Below are positions 44,881 to 63,053 of a DNA stretch of 64,000 nt, piece by piece. The stretch comes from a bacterium. Lineage in GTDB: Bacteria; Zhuqueibacterota; Zhuqueibacteria; Zhuqueibacterales; Zhuqueibacteraceae. Where the stretch lies: contig JBIOXB010000239.1 in assembly GCA_044869275.1 (NCBI GenBank), forward strand, positions 1-64,000, read 5' to 3'. The notes beneath the pieces were generated by a model. The model was not told the origin of the DNA. It saw only the letters and a list, made by a program, of their open reading frames with translations, and did not search any database. The position numbers were made by a program, and so were the translations under genes. Numbering within the stretch: the stretch's first letter is position 1; the number at the start of each line of letters is the position of its first letter.

Positions 44881-45864
44881 ATGGAATATCGTGAACTCGG
44901 ACGCACCGGATGGCAGGTATCCACAATCAGCTTCGGCGCGTGGGCAATTGGCGGCACCTGGGGCACTGTGGATGATGGCGAGTCAATGGCGGCGCTGCAT
45001 CGTGCCCTTGATGGAGGCGTGAACTTCTTCGACACCGCTGATGTGTATGGCGACGGGCGGAGCGAGCGCTTGCTGGCGAGGCTTCGCCGGGAACGGCCAG
45101 AAAAGTTCTACCTCGCCACAAAAGCTGGGCGCCGGCTCGCCCCCCATATTGCCGGAGGATACACCCGTCAGAATCTTGTCGCATTTGTCGAACGCAGCCT
45201 GAAGAACTTGGAGGCGGAGGCCATTGATCTATTGCAGCTGCACTGTCCTCCCACTGAGGTTTATTACATGCCTGAAGTGTTTGGTGTGCTGGATGATCTG
45301 GCAACCGCCGGCAAGCTGCGTCACTACGGGGTGAGCGTGGAGAAAGTCGAAGAAGCCCTGAAAGCCCTCGAGTATCCGGGCGTACAGTCGGTGCAAATCA
45401 TCTTCAATATCTTTCGGCAACGGCCGGCGGATCTCTTCTTCCAAGAGGCGCAACGCCGCCGCGTCGGGATTCTGGCGAGATTGCCGCTCTCCTCGGGTCT
45501 ATTGAGCGGCAAATTCACACATACCAGCACTTTTGCTCCGGATGATCATCGCGCCTTCAACCGGCATGGGGAATCGTTTGATCGCGGCGAGACATTTTCC
45601 GGGCTGGGTTATGAAGTGGGCCTGCGGGCGGTCGAAGCATTGCGCGCGCTGGTGCCGCCCGAGGGGACAATGGCGCAGATGGCACTTCGCTGGATCTTAA
45701 TGTTTTCTGCGGTAACGTGCGCCATTCCGGGAGCCAAACGTCCGGCGCAGGTGGAAGAGAACCTCAAGGCTGCCAACTTGCCGCCGCTTTCAGAGGCAAC
45801 GATGGCAGGAATAGGTGAGGTCTACAATCAATATGCACGCCCGCATGTACATCAATATTGGTAA
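44881..45864 (+). CDS. aldo/keto reductase
   Basis: MEYRELGRTG, FFDTADVYG, YLATK, DLLQLH, GVS, AIPGAK. Confidence 0.92.
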   Translation: MEYRELGRTGWQVSTISFGAWAIGGTWGTVDDGESMAALHRALDGGVNFFDTADVYGDGRSERLLARLRRERPEKFYLATKAGRRLAPHIAGGYTRQNLVAFVERSLKNLEAEAIDLLQLHCPPTEVYYMPEVFGVLDDLATAGKLRHYGVSVEKVEEALKALEYPGVQSVQIIFNIFRQRPADLFFQEAQRRRVGILARLPLSSGLLSGKFTHTSTFAPDDHRAFNRHGESFDRGETFSGLGYEVGLRAVEALRALVPPEGTMAQMALRWILMFSAVTCAIPGAKRPAQVEENLKAANLPPLSEATMAGIGEVYNQYARPHVHQYW

Positions 45865-45944
45865 TGATGCGTGCAAAGCGTCACAAAACGTTTCCCGATC
45901 AAATAGAAACAAAAGTATCCAACACACTTTCAATGTATCTCATC

Positions 45945-46607
45945 ATGAAATCAACTTCTCGAATGGTTTACTGTCATGCTGGTGGGCTTGGCAAAACGAC
46001 CGTCCTACTTCTGCTCTTCGTTCTTTGTTCAGATACGACTTATGCGCAGGGAAATAGCAGCAGGAACGTTGCCACACCTCCGCAACGAGTGGAAATTCCG
46101 AACACGCAATTGCTGAAGATTACTTCCGCCATGGTCGCGCAGGAGTATGATCTTTATATCCCTCTGCCGCGAGGCTACGGCAGTAGCAAGGATTCATACC
46201 CCGTGGTTTATCTTCTGGATGCGCAATGGGATTTTCCCTTAGTCACCGCCATTTTCGGCCAGCAATTCTACGATGGAGTTTCCGGTTTTCAGAAATTCGC
46301 GGATCATTTGAAAGCACGGAATTACCAGGGACTATCGCTGCAAACCAGGGTATTGGAAAACACCGGACATTCCGGAACAAAAGCCGAAGGCTATACCAGA
46401 GGGCTGCAGGCCGTATTCGCACGGCCTTCTTTAAACCTTGCTCCCGCAATCCTGGCGCAATACGTTGGCGCCTACCAACTCAACCCTGAGGTCAAAATCA
46501 ACGTTGCGATGGAAAACGATCATCTTGTCGCACAGGGCCCAGACAACATGAGATTTGTGCTGCACACCGAGACTGAAACGGGACGATTCACACGAGAGAG
46601 GAGTTAA
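45945..46607 (+). pseudogene. IroE-like alpha/beta-hydrolase with an apparent in-frame internal deletion of the catalytic core
   Basis: QEYDLYIPLP..Y...YPVVYLLDAQW start and VLENTGHS end of the fold are only ~45 aa apart; no GxSxG motif. Confidence 0.65.
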
Positions 46608-49237: not shown

Positions 49238-51550
49238 ATGGGGCAATACTGGGTTAAACTGTGGGAGCGACTCGGCAGCAGGCGACCACCAGGGTCGCTG
49301 TTGTCAGAAGTGGAAACACCAATCCGGTTTGCCACGCATGCGACGCACACGACGATCATTACCCATTCGCCTGAGGCCCAGAACGGTGCAGCCGGCGTGG
49401 CCATTGATGCCGGCATCACCATTAATTTCAGTGAGGCGGTGAACGTTGCCGGCAGCTGGTTCTCGATTGTCGGATCCTCCAGCGGTTCACATACGGCAAC
49501 AGTCAGTGGCGGCCCGCAAAACTTTCTTCTGAACCCGGACGTGGATTTTTCCGACAATGAAACCATAACCATCACCATTTTTGCCGCCAATGTGACGGAT
49601 CAAGACGCCAATGATCTTCCGGACAATATGACGGAGGACTATACATTTAGTTTTAGCACGATCACGGTGGCAAGCAACGTGGTAATCAACGAGCTTGATT
49701 CTGATACACCTGGCGCCGATGTCCTGGAGTTTGTTGAACTATATGACGGTGGTGCGGGCAATACCGCCCTTGATGGCCTGGTGGTTGTCTTCTACAACGG
49801 CCTCGGTGACGTCTCCTACAGCGCGTTTAATCTTGACGGCTTCAACACGGACGCCAACGGCTATTTCCTTTTGGGCAATAGCGGCGTCGCCCCGACTCCT
49901 AGTATTATTTTTGGCAACGGTGTTTTGCAAAATGGAGCGGATGCCGTAGCCCTCTATGTCGCGAACGCCTCGAGTTTTCCCAGCGGCGCTGCTGTAACCA
50001 CCACGAATTTGGTCGATGCTGTTGTGTACGACACCGATGATGCGGACGATCCGGGCTTGCTGGTGCTGTTGAATGCCGGCCAGCCGCAAGTCAACGAGAA
50101 CGGTGCTGGTGACGTTGTCAACCATTCAAGCCAGCGCATTCCCAATGGATCCGGCGGAGCACGCAACACCGATACGTATGCGCAATTCCCGCCAACGCCT
50201 GGAGCAGAAAACGTCGGCCCGCCGCCGCCAGTCATGGCCGAAATCTTTGAGATCCAGGGTTCAGGGTTCATCTCACCCCTCGCCAACCAAACCGTCATCA
50301 CCGCAAACAACGTGGTCACTGCCGTCGCTTCGAACGGTTTCGCCATGCAGACGCCCGAGGCGAGAGCTGACGCTGATGTCGAAACCTCCAATGGCATTTT
50401 TGTTTTCACCGGCAGCGCGCCAACGGTCTCTGTCGGCGACTTCAATGCTTATCAGTTCACTGATGGTTACGTGGATGCAGTGGGCCAGATCGCCGGCAGT
50501 TTCACACCGAGCGACAACTTGTTGTCCGGTCCGGATCTCGTGTCTCCAGATTTGACGAAACAGGTGCTGAGCCTGCCGGCAGAAGAGCAGTATTCCTTTA
50601 TATTCGACGGCAGTGCGCAAGTGCTGGATCACATGCTCACTTCGCAGGCGGTCAAACCAACCGGACTGCAGTATGGAAGGGGCAACTCAGATGCCGCCGA
50701 AACTCTAATCGAAGATGACGCCACACCGCTGCGTTCGTCCGACCATGACGGGCTGGTGTTGTATCTAGATGTCGTGCCACCCGCAATTACCATCACCGGA
50801 AGTCCGAGCAAGCTATGGCCACCGCATCACGCGTATCAGACATACGACATCACTGATTTCGTTACCGCCGTAACGGATGGCGGCACCTCCGGCCTCTCGC
50901 CCGCTGACGTCTTCATCGTCGCGGCGACCAGCGATGAGGCGGAAAATGCGCCGGGCAACGTCGATGGCAATACCACGGGCGATATTGTGATTGTCGATTG
51001 CCAAACGATCAAATTGAGAGCGGAACGCGCCGACAATGGCAACGGGCGGGTTTATACCGTAAACGTCGCGGCTGAAGATGCTTCCGGCAACCTTGGAAGC
51101 GCATCATTCCAAGTTCATGTTCCCCTAAGTCAATCGGGAACAGTTGCAGCTGACGACGGATCAGCGTATGCAGTCCCAAGCGCTTGCAGTGCGCCAGCGT
51201 TGAGTGTTGCGCCACCGGCTGCAACTGCGCGGTCCGACGCTCATGCCTCCGAGGAGTTTTCAGAAATTCCGGTTGATTTCGGGTTAGAGCAGAATTTTCC
51301 CAATCCCTTCAATCCAGAAACCGCTATTCGTTTCCAGCTCCCAGAGGCCAGCCACGTGGTCATTCAGATCTACAACACGCTGGGTCGCGAGATCGTCACG
51401 CTGGTCGACGGCCAGTACAGTGCTGGCTCTCATCGCGTGCGCTGGAATGGCAGAAACAGTTCCGGCGAAGTGCTGGCAAGTGGCGTGTATTTTTATCAGC
51501 TTCGGGCAGGCAGTTTTAATCAAGTACGGCGGATGAATTTGTTGCGGTGA
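49238..51550 (+). pseudogene. ExeM/NucH-like extracellular nuclease (Ig-like, lamin-tail-like, partial OB and EEP domains, Ig, sorting domain) with a large in-frame deletion
   Basis: ITINFSEAV, VVINELDSD..EFVEL, IFEIQG, TSNGIFV..VSVGD joined directly to FNAY; YSFIFDG..LDH, SSDHD; QNFPNPFNP tail; no signal peptide. Confidence 0.7.
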
Positions 51551-51583: not shown

Positions 51584-51638
51584 CATGGCATAAAATACCT
51601 GTGCCGCTTTCATCGTCTTAGTGATGGAAGCGGCACAA
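51584..51638. repeat. left copy of a 55-bp hairpin-containing direct repeat (possible terminator)
   Basis: CATGGCATAAAATACCTGTGCCGCTTTCATC-GTCTTAGT-GATGGAAGCGGCACAA. Confidence 0.9.
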
Positions 51639-51970
51639 GCGTTGCGCGCCGCACGGGAAACTGCATCAAGCAAAGAGTTTTCTACGGGGTATTGGGATGA
51701 GTTCGGGCAACTCAATTTCTCAATCTCGTGTGTCAGTTCGTGGTCGCGGACGGATTTATGCTATTTCCCCTGTAGCAACCATTCTTTTACAGCAAAAAAA
51801 TCCTCAAACACTCCCCTAGCGTACAGAATCCGCTCCAGCAACTGGGTTCAAAAACTACCTATAGTGACAAAGCACCGGGGACCATCACCTTGCGCCTGGA
51901 AGGCTCTGTCTTCTTATCTTGCCAAAGTGCTGGCTAGCCAAGACCTCTTTTAAATCAATGGGAGCGACTT

Positions 51971-53773
51971 ATGAGCTTGCGCAAAATCCTGGAGACAAAC
52001 TCCGCTTGTAGTCTGGCCGCTCAGCAAATTACTGAGCATGTGACGCAACTTTGTTCCAGACTTACCCCTCTGCCTTTCTTCACCCTGCACAATGAGGTCC
52101 ATCTAAAAAACGTTGAGCTCAACTTGGACAAAATGCTTTTTCCTCATGGGCTCGCCTGTGTCATCCCGCAAATGAACGAAACAGAAGCATTGTTGCTGTT
52201 GGCAGGAACTTGGCTGCATGATATCGGAATGCTGCGGGGACTGTTTGAAGATGATGGGCAATGCAGTGATGACCAGATTCGAGACCAGCATGAAAAACGG
52301 GCAGCAAAATACATCAGTGAATACTGGCCACCTGCAATCTATTTGGGGCCGGATTTGCAATGGTTCAAGCTCGGGATCAGCAATATCGTCTTGTACCACC
52401 GCAAGCGCCACAATATTGGCGAATGCCCGTCTGAAATACATGTGGACGGCCAGCGCGTTCGTCTCCAGCTTCTCGCTGCACTGCTGCGCCTGGCCGATGC
52501 TGCCGAGCTAAATGGCGAGCGTACGCCTGATTTTCTCCGGCGGCTCTATTTCGCCATGGGCATGTCCGCTCACCACCTCGAGCATTGGGCAAAATATCAA
52601 TTGGTCAACACCGTCGCGTTTGAGCCTCAAAACCGCGAAATCCTGATTCATGCTCTGATTCCCAAAACCGCGAGCTTAAACGACTTCGACTTCAAGGTCA
52701 TCGTTGAAATTCTTGCATGGGAAGTACAGGAAGAGTTGGACACGGTTCATAGCGTTCTTGCTTCCTATGAAGAGCTGGCCTATCGCACCGTAACCCCGAA
52801 GTGTCGCGAAGTGAAATACTTCCCTAATCGCGAGGAGCTTGTCCTCGCCTTCTCGCCCTATATCGTCATGGAACAGCCCAGCGCCGGCACCATGGCGGCC
52901 AGATTCGCCGAGGTCTTGCTGGAAGCATGCGCCATCCATGGCCACTCTCCTGAGCGGCTGCGGGAATTCGCCGAGGAATTGTACAAAAGGATCGACGAAC
53001 GGCGACCGGACAACGTCGCGCTTACCAATGTTTGGCGGGAACTGCAAAACGCATGGAGCCAGAATGCTGCTATCAACGTCCGAAACAGTGTGGAGCAGGT
53101 CGCTCAACTTTGGGTGCGCCAGCGCCAGGAGGCGGTCGAATCAATCAACACAACGGCGAAGCTGGACATCCAACCTGGCGATCTGCTGATTGTGCTAGGG
53201 TACAGCGCGTGCGTGCGCGCTTTGCTCGCCGGCATCACCAATCATTCGGATATCCACATCTATGTTGCCGAGCTTCGCGGACGCACCTTGCTGCCGTGGC
53301 GCAACGAGCCCGAAGCCAGCGAGGGCATCCGAATGGCGCTCGAGGCCAAACACCTCGGTTACGACACCTCGTTCGTGGAAGCAACGTGGGTTCCAACCTT
53401 TTTCGAGCTCAATAGGGAACTCCCATTATGTAACAGTGGCAGGATCTTGGTGTTGTGCGGCGCGCGCGGCATCCGCCAGGATGGCAGCATGCTGAATACT
53501 CCCGGCCATCTCAGCATCGCCAGCGCTGCCAAGACCTACGGTATCCCATTCTATCCGGTGACTGAGTTGAGCAAATTCTCACGCGAGGCCATTGCGCCGC
53601 CGCGAGAGGTTACTCCCTCCCGGGAATTCGCAGATATCCCGCACTCCCAGAAACTGAGGGAAGCGAACATCAGAATTCGACGCCCATACCTCGACTTGGT
53701 TCCGGCTGAACTGATTACAGGATTCGTCACCGAACGGGGTATATTGAAACCGGAAAAAATCTCGCAGAATTAG
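51971..53773 (+). CDS. HD-CE-type HD phosphohydrolase fused to an eIF2B-alpha/MtnA/R15Pi-like domain
   Basis: N-half FTLHNEVH, WLHDIGM, RDQH, LYHR, LLRLAD, RTP, EHW. C-half RRPDNVAL, PGDLLIVLGYS, IYVAELR, EGIRMA, VLCGARGIRQDGSMLN..G, AAKTYGIPFY..E.SKF, DLVPAELITGFVTERG. GGAG RBS. Confidence 0.8.
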   Translation: MSLRKILETNSACSLAAQQITEHVTQLCSRLTPLPFFTLHNEVHLKNVELNLDKMLFPHGLACVIPQMNETEALLLLAGTWLHDIGMLRGLFEDDGQCSDDQIRDQHEKRAAKYISEYWPPAIYLGPDLQWFKLGISNIVLYHRKRHNIGECPSEIHVDGQRVRLQLLAALLRLADAAELNGERTPDFLRRLYFAMGMSAHHLEHWAKYQLVNTVAFEPQNREILIHALIPKTASLNDFDFKVIVEILAWEVQEELDTVHSVLASYEELAYRTVTPKCREVKYFPNREELVLAFSPYIVMEQPSAGTMAARFAEVLLEACAIHGHSPERLREFAEELYKRIDERRPDNVALTNVWRELQNAWSQNAAINVRNSVEQVAQLWVRQRQEAVESINTTAKLDIQPGDLLIVLGYSACVRALLAGITNHSDIHIYVAELRGRTLLPWRNEPEASEGIRMALEAKHLGYDTSFVEATWVPTFFELNRELPLCNSGRILVLCGARGIRQDGSMLNTPGHLSIASAAKTYGIPFYPVTELSKFSREAIAPPREVTPSREFADIPHSQKLREANIRIRRPYLDLVPAELITGFVTERGILKPEKISQN

Positions 53774-53789
53774 CTGGCGCCGATTTCCG

Positions 53790-53845
53790 CATGGCATAAA
53801 ATACCTGTGCCGCTTTCATCCTTTTGAGAGATGGAAGCGGCACAA
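53790..53845. repeat. right copy of the 55-bp direct repeat
   Basis: CATGGCATAAAATACCTGTGCCGCTTTCATC-CTTTTGAGA-GATGGAAGCGGCACAA; differs from the left copy only in the loop. Confidence 0.9.
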
Positions 53846-53890: not shown

Positions 53891-53955
53891 CAGCGGATGG
53901 AAACAACCCAACGGATAAATCAGCTTTATATCAGTTGGGTTGTTTCTATCCGCTG
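53891..53955. repeat. 27-bp near-perfect inverted repeat
   Basis: CAGCGGATGGAAACAACCCAACGGATA ... TATCAGTTGGGTTGTTTCTATCCGCTG. Confidence 0.8.
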
Positions 53956-58840: not shown

Positions 58841-61800
58841 TTAGATTTCATCTGCGCCCAAAGCACGCATGGCGATAATATTCACACTCACCGCCCCGTA
58901 CTCTTCCTCCACCCTGCCGCCGATGACCAAGGGTCTGATCTTCGCCAGCAGGCGGCAGAATTTGTCATAGGCACGCGGGAACAAAGTGGCGTGAAAAATT
59001 CCGGTTTCATCTTCAAACGCCCAAAATTGCATGGACTCGTCCGTCTTGGTGGTGACGTCTTTGCTGGCAATGGGCCAGCCGGCGAGCTGAACGAATTTGC
59101 CCACGTGTTGAAACAAATCGACCGCTTGCACGCGTTTGATTTTTGCGATGGCGGCGCGGTATTCATCCAAAGGATGGCGCGAGATCAATGTGCCAAATGC
59201 GGTAATTTCACGCTGCAGGCATTCTTGCTTGCTATGCGGCCGGCAGCAGTGCTGGGCGCGCGCTTTCTGCTCGTCATAGCAATCGTCGAAATCACGCGGC
59301 CGGCCCAAGCCGGTCCAATAAGAATAAAGATAATGCAAGGCCGCTTGTGACAATTCCGGCTCCAGTTGGTCAAACACGCCGGCCATGATCAGCCTTTCCA
59401 TGTCTGCGTCTTGAATGGGGACACGCTTTAAAAAATCCTGAAATGATCTGAATCGCCCGCGTTGCTGGCGTTCGTCCACGATCCGGTCCTTGGCCTCAGC
59501 GTGCACCCCCTGTATCCACATCAAGCCAATCCTAACTTGCTGGCCTTCGCCGGTGCATTTGACCTCGCTTGCGTTGATGTCCGGCAGCAAGACTTGCAAG
59601 CCTGTTCTTTGGCATTCGCTGACATATGCGCGAAATCCCCAAAATCCGCCGTGATAGGACAAGCGCGCAGCCATGAACTCAGCAGGATAATGCGCTTTGA
59701 GATAAACACAGGTCAACGCTAGAATCACATACGAAGCGCTGTGCGCTTTGAGAAAGCTGTAATGCACGAATTGCAGAATTTGCTCGGCCGTTTGCCGGGC
59801 AACTTGTTCTGGAACGCCGTTCCTCCGGCAGCCTGCGAGGTATTTGCGCATCAGGGCGCGCAGGCGCTGCTCGGATTTTTTAGCGGTCAGGGCTTTGCGC
59901 AGGGCATCGGCTTCCACTTCGGAGAAGCCGGCCAATTCCATGGCCACCAAGTTGACATGCTCTTGATACACCAGAATGCCATAGGTTTCACCCAAGATTG
60001 GAGCAAGCTTGGGGTGCAAATACTCAAATTTTCCGCCATAAAACCGCCGCAGAAATTCCTGCATGCTCTTGTTGCTGGCGGGTCGAATGATGGACGACAG
60101 AATCACCAAGACCTCAAAGATGCGCTGCGGGCCGGTTTTTTTAAGCGCCGGTCCGATTTTCTGCAAGAGCTGCAAAAAAGACGCAGACTCAATATGAAAA
60201 CAGGCCATGGTTTTGGCCTGGACGATGAGCTCGCAGGTTTTGCGGTCAGAGGCAAAACGCTGCCAATCGCGGTAGTCGAGGTCAACGCCGTATTTCTCCT
60301 TGATCGCCGCCAGTGCATCGCGAATCACACACAGTGAGGTATTCCCCAGAATATCCACTTTGACCAAGCGCAGAACGTTTTCGGTTTGATCTTTTTCAGT
60401 TTGAATGGCGATGATGCCGTTTTTTGAGCGCTGGCGCGGGAGGTAATGATCGATGCCCTCGGGCGCAATCACGATGCCGCCGGGATGAAGCGACAGATGC
60501 GAAGGAACGCCCACCAGTTTCTCAGCATCCTGCAAAATCTGCGGCCATTTGTCCGAGAGCTTCACCCCGCGAAACATGGGGTGGGTTTTGTAGAAAGATG
60601 CGATGCTGCCGCCCCAGCCGGAAAAGTAACGCGTCACTTGCGCAATCTCAGCCTGGGGCAGGCCCTCCAATTCCGCCAAGCGCCGGATCGCCTGGCGCAT
60701 GCCCATGCAATTGTGATTCGCCACCATGGCCACGTGCTTTTCACCGTAATCGGCAAAGATGGAATCGATGATGCCGCGGCGCTCGTCCTGGCAATAGTCC
60801 ATGTCGATGTCCGGCGGATCGGTGCGCGCTTCATTGAGAAAGCGGCCGAAGTAGAGATCGCAAGAGATGGGATCGACCGCGGTAATGTCGAGCAGATGGC
60901 TGATCAAACTGGCGGCGGCTGAGCCGCGACCGCAAGTGTATTTCGCCTTTTGTACGATCTCCCGCATCACTAAAAAAGTATCGGCAAAACCTTTGCGAAT
61001 GACCAGATCGAGCTCCTTGTCCAAACGCGCCATCACTTCCGGCGAGGCCAGGTATTTTTTCTGCGCGGCAGCAATGGTGAGCTCGCGCAAAACTTCTGCA
61101 GAGGATTTGCCGGAAGGAAGTGTGGCGGCCGGGAAGATCATGCGGTCAAAACGCAAACGAAACGCCGCGCATTTTTCCGCAATGGTCACGGTGTTTCTGA
61201 GCGCTTCAGGATAGGCAGAAAACTCTTCTGCCATCTGCGCCGCGCTTTTGAACCAGGCTTCGGGGTGGGCGAGTTCAGCAGGCGGAACGGTTTTGAGAGT
61301 CTTTTTCAGATTGATTGCGCGCAATTTGACATGCAATTCATAATCCTCGCGCGCGAGAAAGTGAACGTCATTGGTAACCACCGCGGGAATGCCGGTGGCG
61401 CGGCTAAACGCCATGGCCGCACTGCGATTTTGGCCGGGACGAAGCTCGGCATACAAATCTGCCGTGCCGCCCTGCGCCCGCAAGTGTTCGAGCAGTGAAA
61501 AACAATCGGTGATAATGACCAAGCCTTCATTTCTCTGGGTGAGAGCTTCCGGCAGCGCAAAGGCCGGATCGAGATGGCGTTGTGAAATGAGATGGCAAAG
61601 GTGAGAGTAACCCGTGCGCGTAAAGGGCAAAAGCACGGCTCGGCCCGTGGCATGACGAATCTCCGCACCCACGATCGGCGTGAGCTGATATTCCGAACAC
61701 GCTTCTAAAAACCAGCCCAGGCCATAAAGGCCGTTGACCTCGGTGAGCGCGAGGGCACTGCAGCCCAGCTGTCGGGCGTGGCGGCAAAGATTTTCGATGG

Positions 61801-61855
61801 AGGCCGTGCCCACGCCCATGGAATAAAACGAGCGCACGGAAAGATGTGTGAACAT
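58841..61855 (-). CDS. dnaE2: error-prone DNA polymerase III alpha subunit (DnaE2/ImuC-like)
   Basis: PHP start FTHLSVRSFYS, GRGSAAAS, PPDIDMD, HPGG, KVDILG, YSFLKAHS, OB fold FEDETG; short (1004 aa); adjacent to an ImuB-like gene. Confidence 0.88.
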   Translation of the reverse strand: MFTHLSVRSFYSMGVGTASIENLCRHARQLGCSALALTEVNGLYGLGWFLEACSEYQLTPIVGAEIRHATGRAVLLPFTRTGYSHLCHLISQRHLDPAFALPEALTQRNEGLVIITDCFSLLEHLRAQGGTADLYAELRPGQNRSAAMAFSRATGIPAVVTNDVHFLAREDYELHVKLRAINLKKTLKTVPPAELAHPEAWFKSAAQMAEEFSAYPEALRNTVTIAEKCAAFRLRFDRMIFPAATLPSGKSSAEVLRELTIAAAQKKYLASPEVMARLDKELDLVIRKGFADTFLVMREIVQKAKYTCGRGSAAASLISHLLDITAVDPISCDLYFGRFLNEARTDPPDIDMDYCQDERRGIIDSIFADYGEKHVAMVANHNCMGMRQAIRRLAELEGLPQAEIAQVTRYFSGWGGSIASFYKTHPMFRGVKLSDKWPQILQDAEKLVGVPSHLSLHPGGIVIAPEGIDHYLPRQRSKNGIIAIQTEKDQTENVLRLVKVDILGNTSLCVIRDALAAIKEKYGVDLDYRDWQRFASDRKTCELIVQAKTMACFHIESASFLQLLQKIGPALKKTGPQRIFEVLVILSSIIRPASNKSMQEFLRRFYGGKFEYLHPKLAPILGETYGILVYQEHVNLVAMELAGFSEVEADALRKALTAKKSEQRLRALMRKYLAGCRRNGVPEQVARQTAEQILQFVHYSFLKAHSASYVILALTCVYLKAHYPAEFMAARLSYHGGFWGFRAYVSECQRTGLQVLLPDINASEVKCTGEGQQVRIGLMWIQGVHAEAKDRIVDERQQRGRFRSFQDFLKRVPIQDADMERLIMAGVFDQLEPELSQAALHYLYSYWTGLGRPRDFDDCYDEQKARAQHCCRPHSKQECLQREITAFGTLISRHPLDEYRAAIAKIKRVQAVDLFQHVGKFVQLAGWPIASKDVTTKTDESMQFWAFEDETGIFHATLFPRAYDKFCRLLAKIRPLVIGGRVEEEYGAVSVNIIAMRALGADEI

Positions 61856-61901
61856 GAATCATGGCAATATGGTTTCTTCGTGCCGCTTAATTTTTCGCCG
61901 C

Positions 61902-63053
61902 TCACAGCGCGCGTGCATAGCCAACCTTTTCGCCAAACCTACCCTTGATCGCGTCCAAGGCCGCCTCCAGCGTGTGACGCTTTTCTTCCTGCGTGTTTTC
62001 AAATAAAGAAAGCTGTGCCGAGAACGGAACGATTTGTGGAAGGCGCAGCATGAGCGTGCGCACACCGACGCGGCGTTGCAGGGCTTTGCGGAGCAAATGT
62101 TCCGCTGCTTGTTTGAGTGCAAAGTCATCACTCGCCGCCTGGCGCAATTTGATTTGCGCCTGCGCCGAGCGCCGATCCGAGTGCTCTATTTCCAGCACCA
62201 GACTCATGGCCGCCAGACGCTCGGCGCGCAGCTTCATCCCGGCTTCTTCAACCAGCCGCAACAACTGGTGGCGCAAAATTTCGACATCATTGGTATCCGG
62301 CGAAAGCACCACGCCAAACACCTGCTCCTGGCGTTCTTTTTCCGATATAACGGGCGAGAGATCAATGCCGTGCGCTTGTTCATTCAGCTTGCGGCCGAGC
62401 CGGCCAAACAGCACCGCCAAGTCCTCGCCTGCCAAACTGGCCACCCAACCAATGCGCCGCAGGTTCATAAGCTCGAGCTGGTGCCACATTTTACCCTCCA
62501 CCACCGGCAATAGCTGCGCCGGATGCGGGGCCAGAAACGTGCTTTCCTCACCGGCTTTCACCCAGCGCAGTTCATGGCGTTCCGGCATGGTCTGCGCCGC
62601 AATCATGCTCACCAGTTTGTTGCTCGCCAGAGCCGCCACGGCGTTCATGCCCATCTGGCGAATATCCTTCACCGTGTGATAGCAAATATGCGACAGGCGT
62701 GCGGGATTTTTTGAGATATAAGACAAATCCGCATAACCTCGGCCCAGGGGCGCATGCTCGGCCAGGGGACTTATCTTGCGCATGAGATGGAACATGGCCA
62801 CGCTGCCGCTGTGATAGTAGTGTGCATCATAGGGCAGAATCAGCAAGTCCCGGCACAGGCCTTTCGCGGCAGATAAGAGCATGCCTTGTTGAATGCCACA
62901 CGCGCCGGCTTCACGCGAAGCGGCGCGCACCAGCGCCCGCGTCTTGCCCGTTTGCACCACGGCCAGCGGCCGACCTTTGAGCTGGGGCACGCGCAGGCAT
63001 TCCATCTGCACGTGAAATTCCGGTACGGCGAAGTGTGCAACATGTCGCTCCAT
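61902..63053 (-). CDS. catalytically inactive Y-family polymerase (ImuB-like)
   Basis: P.LKGRPLAV, AASREA..CGIQQGM, ASNKLVS; catalytic acidic residues absent; QLSLF clamp motif; LEAALDAIKGRFG tail. Confidence 0.85.
   Translation of the reverse strand: MERHVAHFAVPEFHVQMECLRVPQLKGRPLAVVQTGKTRALVRAASREAGACGIQQGMLLSAAKGLCRDLLILPYDAHYYHSGSVAMFHLMRKISPLAEHAPLGRGYADLSYISKNPARLSHICYHTVKDIRQMGMNAVAALASNKLVSMIAAQTMPERHELRWVKAGEESTFLAPHPAQLLPVVEGKMWHQLELMNLRRIGWVASLAGEDLAVLFGRLGRKLNEQAHGIDLSPVISEKERQEQVFGVVLSPDTNDVEILRHQLLRLVEEAGMKLRAERLAAMSLVLEIEHSDRRSAQAQIKLRQAASDDFALKQAAEHLLRKALQRRVGVRTLMLRLPQIVPFSAQLSLFENTQEEKRHTLEAALDAIKGRFGEKVGYARAL

Follow-up and report, generated by a model that had tools for sequence, protein, structure and literature searches.

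The protein of 600 residues encoded near the right end of the window (the whole 64,000-nt stretch of DNA analysed here) joins an HD-CE phosphohydrolase domain to an IF-2B-like module without the isomerase catalytic residues. We consider it somewhat probable that it is a one-gene effector of prokaryotic conflict, most likely of anti-phage defence, which hydrolyses nucleotides under the control of a nucleoside monophosphate (NMP) or ribose-5-phosphate. More tentatively, the dead fold of eIF2B and ribose-1,5-bisphosphate isomerase (RBPI) may be a kind of immune sensor so far overlooked in prokaryotes, on a par with CARF, SAVED, and PUA, for which an NMP or a ribose phosphate serves as the danger signal and HD, TIR, caspase, nuclease, and trypsin domains are outputs that can be exchanged.

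The fusion gene and its locus

The features of the locus are as follows.

51971..53773, plus strand: HD-CE and IF-2B-like fusion gene, an intact open reading frame of 600 aa (Pfam, AlphaFold2)
52070..52741, plus strand: predicted HD-CE phosphohydrolase domain, approximately residues 34-256 (Pfam, motifs, fold comparison)
52880..53752, plus strand: IF-2B/RBPI-like module, residues 304-594, with a helical subdomain and a Rossmann-like domain
51584..51638, plus strand: left copy of a 56-nt hairpin direct repeat, 34 nt past the stop codon of the upstream gene (z -2.7)
53790..53845, plus strand: right copy of the 56-nt hairpin direct repeat, 17 nt past the stop codon of the fusion gene (z -2.9)
53891..53955, no strand assigned: REP-like palindrome of a genome-wide family with relatives on 10 other contigs (z -9.9)

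Residues 34-256 match the Pfam family HD-CE (PF24391; 108.9 bits against a cut-off of 27, E 4.7e-31) and residues 304-594 match Pfam IF-2B (90.6 bits against a cut-off of 22.4, E 1.3e-25). Both folds are confident in the AlphaFold2 model, which was built from a 103-row alignment (pLDDT 93.1, pTM 0.90) and in which the HD metal site joins the helical subdomain of the C-half without a long linker. A preliminary description of this DNA had proposed an intact metal-binding HD set followed by a complete eIF2B-alpha/MtnA/RBPI-like fold. The HD set is present in full (H40-xxx-H44, H83-D84, H107, H143, and R173-L-A-D176), and Pfam, AlphaFold2, and fold matches agree on the second half, which does model as the IF-2B fold in the AlphaFold check that had been suggested for both halves. 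The RP, GYS, and E-x-R elements are found at R345-P346, 410-412, and E434-x-R436. With regard to the lost THC and GAD catalytic positions, the reading of GAD as GAR (497-499) was correct, whereas that of THC as LGY has to be amended: the cysteine of the isomerase motif THCHS aligns to G410, so that THC corresponds to VLG, and the conclusion that the cysteine is missing stands.

The gene is not an assembly chimera, because contigs from two studies match across the domain junction. A contig from run X1, which is possibly the source, covers positions 51585-53819 with 0 differences at a depth of 9.96, compared with 10.2 and 12.4 in the flanks, and a contig from run X2, a separate study, covers positions 52721-53323, including the junction, with 0 differences. 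Three outcomes had been named as speaking against the preliminary description, namely a wrong fold of the C-half, a housekeeping isomerase, and an assembly chimera; none of them was found.

The gene had also been described as lone and repeat-bounded, and the hairpin repeat does lie on both sides of it, in copies that are 93% identical and 2206 nt apart. No further copy was found in the genome at E<0.01 or in any of 18 genomes of the family, so the 56-nt repeat, with only two copies, is not a genome-wide REP. Integron attC sites follow the end rule RYYYAAC/GTTRRRY, which the ends of the repeat do not fit by eye, and the repeat is probably not such a site. The 2206-nt unit, inside which no recombinase was found, may be an insertion that duplicated the hairpin site. 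Among the joints listed for 4 runs, none bypasses the element, which does not prove that an empty site is absent. Neither a sigma-70-like promoter nor a plus-strand terminator match was found for the gene, and no RNA data set was listed as containing it.

The fusion gene is flanked by the gene of a secreted LTD/Big5/FlgD-type protein and by a convergent ABC permease gene. Among 10 relatives (2 of them uninformative, and one row being the unpublished G001), the content of the slot downstream of this permease varies, with an IetA defence ATPase in one relative (E 1.6e-92) and a DNA methyltransferase fragment in another. The nearest orthologue, which is 68% identical, occupies a different site near a tRNA-Met gene. 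Three other parts of the window may be mentioned. The secreted Big5/LTD/FlgD-type protein (49238-51550) resembles a shortened extracellular nuclease in its middle and has a diverged allele in run X2. The open reading frame at 45858-46607 has a weak match to DUF3471 as its only Pfam match, and resembles an alpha/beta-hydrolase (esterase) gene minus its middle. On the minus strand, the gene of a DNA polymerase IV-like protein precedes that of a DnaE-type polymerase (58841-63053), an arrangement that resembles an error-prone mutagenesis cassette.

A deep but patchy family

The fusion family is deep but very patchy, and extends across bacteria and archaea (methanogens). A word-indexed search returned 3 close relatives; an exhaustive search returned 1324 representatives at E<=0.001, of which 150 were listed, and the family counts rest on these matches listed. 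Homologues with the same architecture, whose collection had been recommended, are abundant: both halves are covered in 135 of the 152 proteins examined among the matches listed, the 17 others (fragments or HD-only) being left out of the counts with n=135. According to record titles, members occur in Pirellulales, Phycisphaerae, Desulfosporosinus, Thermodesulfobacteriota, Syntrophaceae, Flavobacteriales, Methanothrix, and another euryarchaeon. An HD-CE partner accompanies 46/50 and 14/14 matches of a profile built from the C-half by itself; the four matches without one comprise a protein that is MtnA-like by motifs, two on 1.6-kb contigs, and P0186. The ESM Atlas contains an automatically named cluster of 85 members with the same architecture.

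Within the phylum of the query, the gene is present in 2 of 167 genomes, a tally that counts the unpublished G001 and G014 as rows. In a methanogen family, 4 of 105 genomes carry it, one copy being internally deleted. This spread, together with a Methanothrix slot that is empty in 17 of 30 cases, agrees with the accessory role previously suggested for the gene. No family match was found among annotated phages. Plasmids gave 15 matches, which are limited to 22% of the query, within its HD part, and viral contigs gave 0 and 1 match, the latter HD-only. Two members have unusual architectures: L143 (G218:C317) is a 1330-aa open frame with a very long insertion within the IF-2B half, and P0109 has a region like the HerA ATPase at its C-terminus (weak PADLOC matches, E ~1e-5).

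The HD half

The HD site is highly conserved, with all seven residues retained in 123 of the 135 members (H40 in 129, H44 in 134, H83 in 135, D84 in 132, H107 in 130, H143 in 133, and D176 in 128), the query among those that keep all of them. The nearest fold to the N-half is the HD domain of PPX/GppA (Z 13.9, rmsd 3.9, 195 aligned residues), a score that is middling for a helical domain, and cyclic-nucleotide phosphodiesterases are matched at Z ~11 and rmsd ~5 A, a range common for helical domains. From these neighbours and from knowledge of the HD superfamily, the substrate is probably a nucleotide phosphoester. CE in HD-CE stands for conflict effector, and the domain probably comes from a 2023 paper on nucleotide-targeting effectors, which may also list the present fusion.

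The pocket and dimer of the IF-2B-like half

The best profile match of the C-half is RBPI (114 bits; Foldseek E 8.6e-16), and it aligns with the aIF2B/eIF2B fold over 270 residues (Z 27.1, rmsd 2.9 A); on the basis of these profile and fold scores, its origin is placed in the RBPI/eIF2B-like fold. A housekeeping isomerase is ruled out: the catalytic residues are absent and the NCBIfam models score far below their cut-offs, those for MtnA reaching 44-54 bits against cut-offs of 186-279. Another gene of the IF-2B family lies on contig C63 of the same genome.

Pocket positions were mapped from the residues of PH0208 (PMC5789824) through the profile alignment, on which the pocket geometry rests. 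The catalytic C135 corresponds to G410 in the query, and cysteine is found at this position in 0 of 135 members. The catalytic D204 corresponds to R499, a position with Asn in 95, His in 15, Arg in 14, and Asp in 4 members (Asp being absent in 131). The non-catalytic character proposed for the query is thus supported for the whole family. In the accessible text on PH0208, S137 and K240 bind the 5-phosphate, R22, R65, Q166, and K215 bind the 1-phosphate, and the D204N variant is inactive and still binds the substrate (PMC5789824). The 5-phosphate ligands are retained as S412 (132/135) and K535 (131/135), as is the backbone turn A305-G306, and G512 is invariant (135/135). The 1-phosphate ligands are mostly replaced, R22 by P303 and K215 by T510 in the query, and Q166 could not be mapped with confidence; R65, equivalent to R345 (104/135), is the only one remaining. 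As judged from the alignment, the family pocket keeps the 5-phosphate site and has a degraded 1-phosphate site, as in eIF2B-alpha, for which the same loss is reported in the accessible text of PMC5789824. This loss makes R15P or PRPP less likely ligands than a 5'-monophosphate.

In the parts of the eIF2B papers that were available, eIF2B-alpha holds F6P with the 1' position open, its affinity for F6P is reduced 11-fold when E198 is changed to Lys, eIF2B-beta and -delta have the same fold and have lost ligand binding (PMC8187479), and AMP and GMP are bound by eIF2B-alpha at 10 uM and 2.9 uM, respectively (PMC4787765). The query appears to match this monophosphate pocket at G410, Y411, S412, G497, N509, and K535, with R499 at the position of E198. 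As an arginine occupies this position, the ligand of the query may differ or be lost. The query sits in a divergent clade of 36 members, whose pocket departs from the family consensus. The main clade displays further conserved residues (n=135), namely H348 in 88, N499 in 95, H509 in 91, H513 in 97, and D/E451 in 130 members, of which H348, D/E451, H509, and H513 could read a base. One pocket pattern is shared by 60 of 68 further members, counted from listed rows, which are complete and <90% identical to the first set, many of them coming from one clade.

The C-half is predicted to form a homodimer (residues 286-600) through residues 466-484 and 565-578. The model scored 0.67, with a pLDDT of at least 77 and 88% agreement of contacts, and the highest-scoring of 3 controls 0.00. 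Of solved pairs, 20 of 30 attain the pass mark, as does 1 of 23 single chains; likeness to the solved RBPI/eIF2B dimers may explain why the C-half passes.

Fused domains and alteration of the HD site

N-terminal extensions of at least 120 aa are found in 12 of the 135 members and comprise TIR (4), calcineurin-like (2), HTH (2), caspase (1), Mrr (1), DnaA-HTH (1), and unknown (1) regions, and 2 members have long C-terminal extensions. The surveyed loci add TIR fusions (L002, L068) and, at L020, a fusion to trypsin that is preceded by a Trypco1 gene, Trypco1 being a domain defined in conflict systems in the accessible part of PMC7159879. The link to conflict that had been suggested for the HD-CE domain is supported by the fused TIR, caspase, Mrr, calcineurin-like, and trypsin domains, the last with Trypco1.

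Altered HD ligands are found in 10 of 14 extended members, compared with 2 of 121 plain ones (Fisher p 1.6e-10); the extension cut-offs were set post hoc, and some of the changes are conservative (D to E). When only N-terminal extensions are considered, the HD site is altered in 8/12 against 4/123. S412 and K535 are mostly retained where the HD site is altered, and four TIR fusions keep the HD site intact. On a FastTree tree, extension and HD alteration each change 11 times, and 8 independent pairs change in the same direction in 5.9 cases and in the opposite direction in 0.0 cases on average (median p 0.031, range 0.016-0.22). The association is weak out of sample, with altered sites in 1 of 3 extended members (the trypsin fusion L020) and in 1 of 64 complete plain members, one truncated protein having been dropped from the latter set. 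The simplest reading takes the HD domain as a default output for which other conflict effectors can be substituted, and the IF-2B half as the input that is retained.

Genomic neighbourhoods

Neighbourhoods were surveyed at 40 fusion loci (14 from genomes and 26 from metagenomes), which are partly redundant and often short, and no conserved partner gene was found across them. Defence-type neighbours occur at approximately 8 of these 40 partly redundant loci, counted without a background control, and most other neighbours are housekeeping genes or IS elements. The defence-type neighbours include WYL and type I-C CRISPR genes (L007/L048), ApeA-HEPN (L023), an AbiEii-like gene (L068), a PDC-S60-like gene (L066), Tae4-Tai4 (L045), and a dGTPase that is possibly housekeeping (L044); at L052:2-5669, the family gene has a pAgo gene on one side and the gene of an LmuB/SMC-like ATPase on the other. 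No model of PADLOC 2.0 (library of 2023) matches the query, and relatives give weak HD matches.

In Methanothrix, two members that are only 31% identical lie in opposite orientations between RuBisCO and FBP aldolase/phosphatase genes (L012:2902-6318, L020:7147-13055, and L028:3631-5668, the L028 copy being internally deleted). As nothing separates the RuBisCO and FBP aldolase/phosphatase genes at 17 of the 30 loci of relatives, the members in this slot are insertions, arising in two independent events either by a hotspot or by a metabolic link. Another conserved gene is found upstream of RuBisCO in 9 of the 30 relatives.

Proposed function and alternatives

In the mechanism that we favour, the C-halves would dimerise, perhaps as hexamers, as in RBPI. 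Infection would raise the level of a 5'-phosphorylated ribose ligand, for which an NMP or dNMP released as nucleic acids are broken down is the likeliest candidate, and ribose-5-phosphate or an ADP-ribose product the alternative. By closing the pocket, the ligand would move the helical subdomain and switch on the attached HD domain, which would then hydrolyse a nucleotide pool or signal and arrest the cell. The output would have passed, in some lineages, to a TIR, caspase, Mrr, calcineurin-like, or trypsin domain, the HD site decaying and the pocket staying. The lack of a conserved partner gene, the ordinary neighbours at most fusion loci, and R499 in the query speak against the defence reading.

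It is rather unlikely that the protein is a regulator of metabolite stress outside defence, in which the pocket reads a sugar phosphate or NMP and tunes the turnover by the HD domain of a cNMP, an alarmone, or a polyphosphate-linked signal nucleotide. The best evidence for such a regulator is the position of the two divergent Methanothrix members beside RuBisCO, to which the PPX/GppA and phosphodiesterase neighbours of the HD fold and the prevalence of housekeeping genes around the family can be added. However, the distribution is very patchy, the RuBisCO slot is empty in 17 of the 30 relatives' loci, one of its two inserts is the Trypco1-trypsin fusion with an altered HD site, and most fused extras are death or nuclease domains.

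A two-enzyme cascade that destroys nucleotides appears less likely still. Here the C-half would be a new enzyme, for instance an NMP nucleosidase that works on what the HD domain produces, with histidines specific to the family replacing Cys and Asp. The main clade does keep H348, N499, H509, H513, and D/E451, NUDIX/IF-2B fusions place the same fold behind a nucleotide hydrolase (accessible text of PMC8576121 and PMC12210691), and PUA-Cal-HAD is described as a two-enzyme dNTP sink in the available part of 10.64898/2026.01.15.699771. Nevertheless, the histidines vary within the 36-member clade of the query, and the pocket outlasts HD decay when an unrelated effector is fused, so that a sensor fits better than a second enzymatic step. 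The least likely of the alternatives, and an improbable one, is that the C-half, at least in the query, is a ligand-blind scaffold or auto-inhibitory clamp released by a protein trigger such as a phage product. The replacement of a sugar-contacting residue by R499, the off-consensus pocket of the query clade, and the precedent of eIF2B-beta and -delta, which have lost ligand binding (PMC8187479, accessible text), would be consistent with this, whereas both the query and the wider family, at 22-30% identity, retain S412, K535, G512, and R345.

If the dead fold is indeed an immune sensor, prokaryotes would have made a stress sensor out of an isomerase fold in parallel with eukaryotic eIF2B, and the family would offer a single-chain prokaryotic case of a sugar-phosphate isomerase fold turned into an allosteric switch, with a bearing on why eIF2B-alpha retains a metabolite pocket. 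Prokaryotic immunity would gain a ligand-sensing module, and the infection metabolite could be found by a simple ligand screen. The family is large and compact (~600 aa), with obvious mutants in both halves.

Comparison with known systems

No description of the HD-CE and IF-2B fusion was found in the literature searched, in which subscription papers were thinly covered and supplements lay outside the scope, and a term look-up gave no mention of eIF2B or IF-2B in the accessible parts of 10.64898/2026.10.19.760177, PMC7159879, and PMC9503650. As far as was searched, the fusion is undescribed; ligand-gated single-gene effectors are a known kind, and the sensor fold is unusual among them.

By score and motifs, the query is a member of the HD-CE (PF24391) proteins, which include the longer ones at L013 and L014. 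In these, the partner of the HD domain is a visible P-loop or repeat region, whereas in the query it is the IF-2B-like module. The other HD-CE proteins at L013, L014, L017, L022, L025, L026, and L029 have long C-terminal regions with P-loop or TPR-like stretches by eye. Clover CloA and the antiviral dGTPases (PMC12265719, accessible text) are HD enzymes under allosteric nucleotide control in anti-phage defence, as is proposed for the query. The query differs from them by its separate putative sensor domain and by having no PADLOC dGTPase match, and its neighbours are the FlgD-type secreted protein and the ABC permease, with no CloB nucleotidyltransferase at the locus.

The likeness to PUA-Calcineurin-CE-HAD lies in the proposed logic. 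In the available part of 10.64898/2026.01.15.699771, an NMP released when DNA is broken down is sensed by a ligand-binding fold, which gates a phosphoesterase and is also fused to varied effectors such as TIR. In contrast, both the putative sensor and the enzyme of the query are unrelated to these, and a HAD partner is absent. NUDIX/eIF-2B-domain proteins (HVO_1934, PMC8576121; fungal NUDIX subfamily B, PMC12210691; accessible text of both) also place a nucleotide hydrolase ahead of IF-2B, and are set apart by their descriptions, the query having HD instead of NUDIX.

With RBPI (TIGR00511; PH0208, PDB 5yfs/5yft; TkRBPI, 3a11/3vm6), the query shares the fold, the 5-phosphate site, and the dimer, which is predicted here. 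It differs in being accessory and fused to HD-CE, in having no catalytic Cys or Asp, and in its score of 66.6 bits against a cut-off of 314. The resemblance to eIF2B-alpha (PMC8187479, PMC4787765; accessible text) comprises a dead isomerase fold and, as predicted from the alignment, a monophosphate pocket with a lost 1-phosphate site. The query is nevertheless prokaryotic, has its putative enzyme output on the same chain, and lies outside any eIF2/GEF context, and the position of E198 is occupied by Asn in most family members and by Arg in the query, with extra conserved His and Asp residues.
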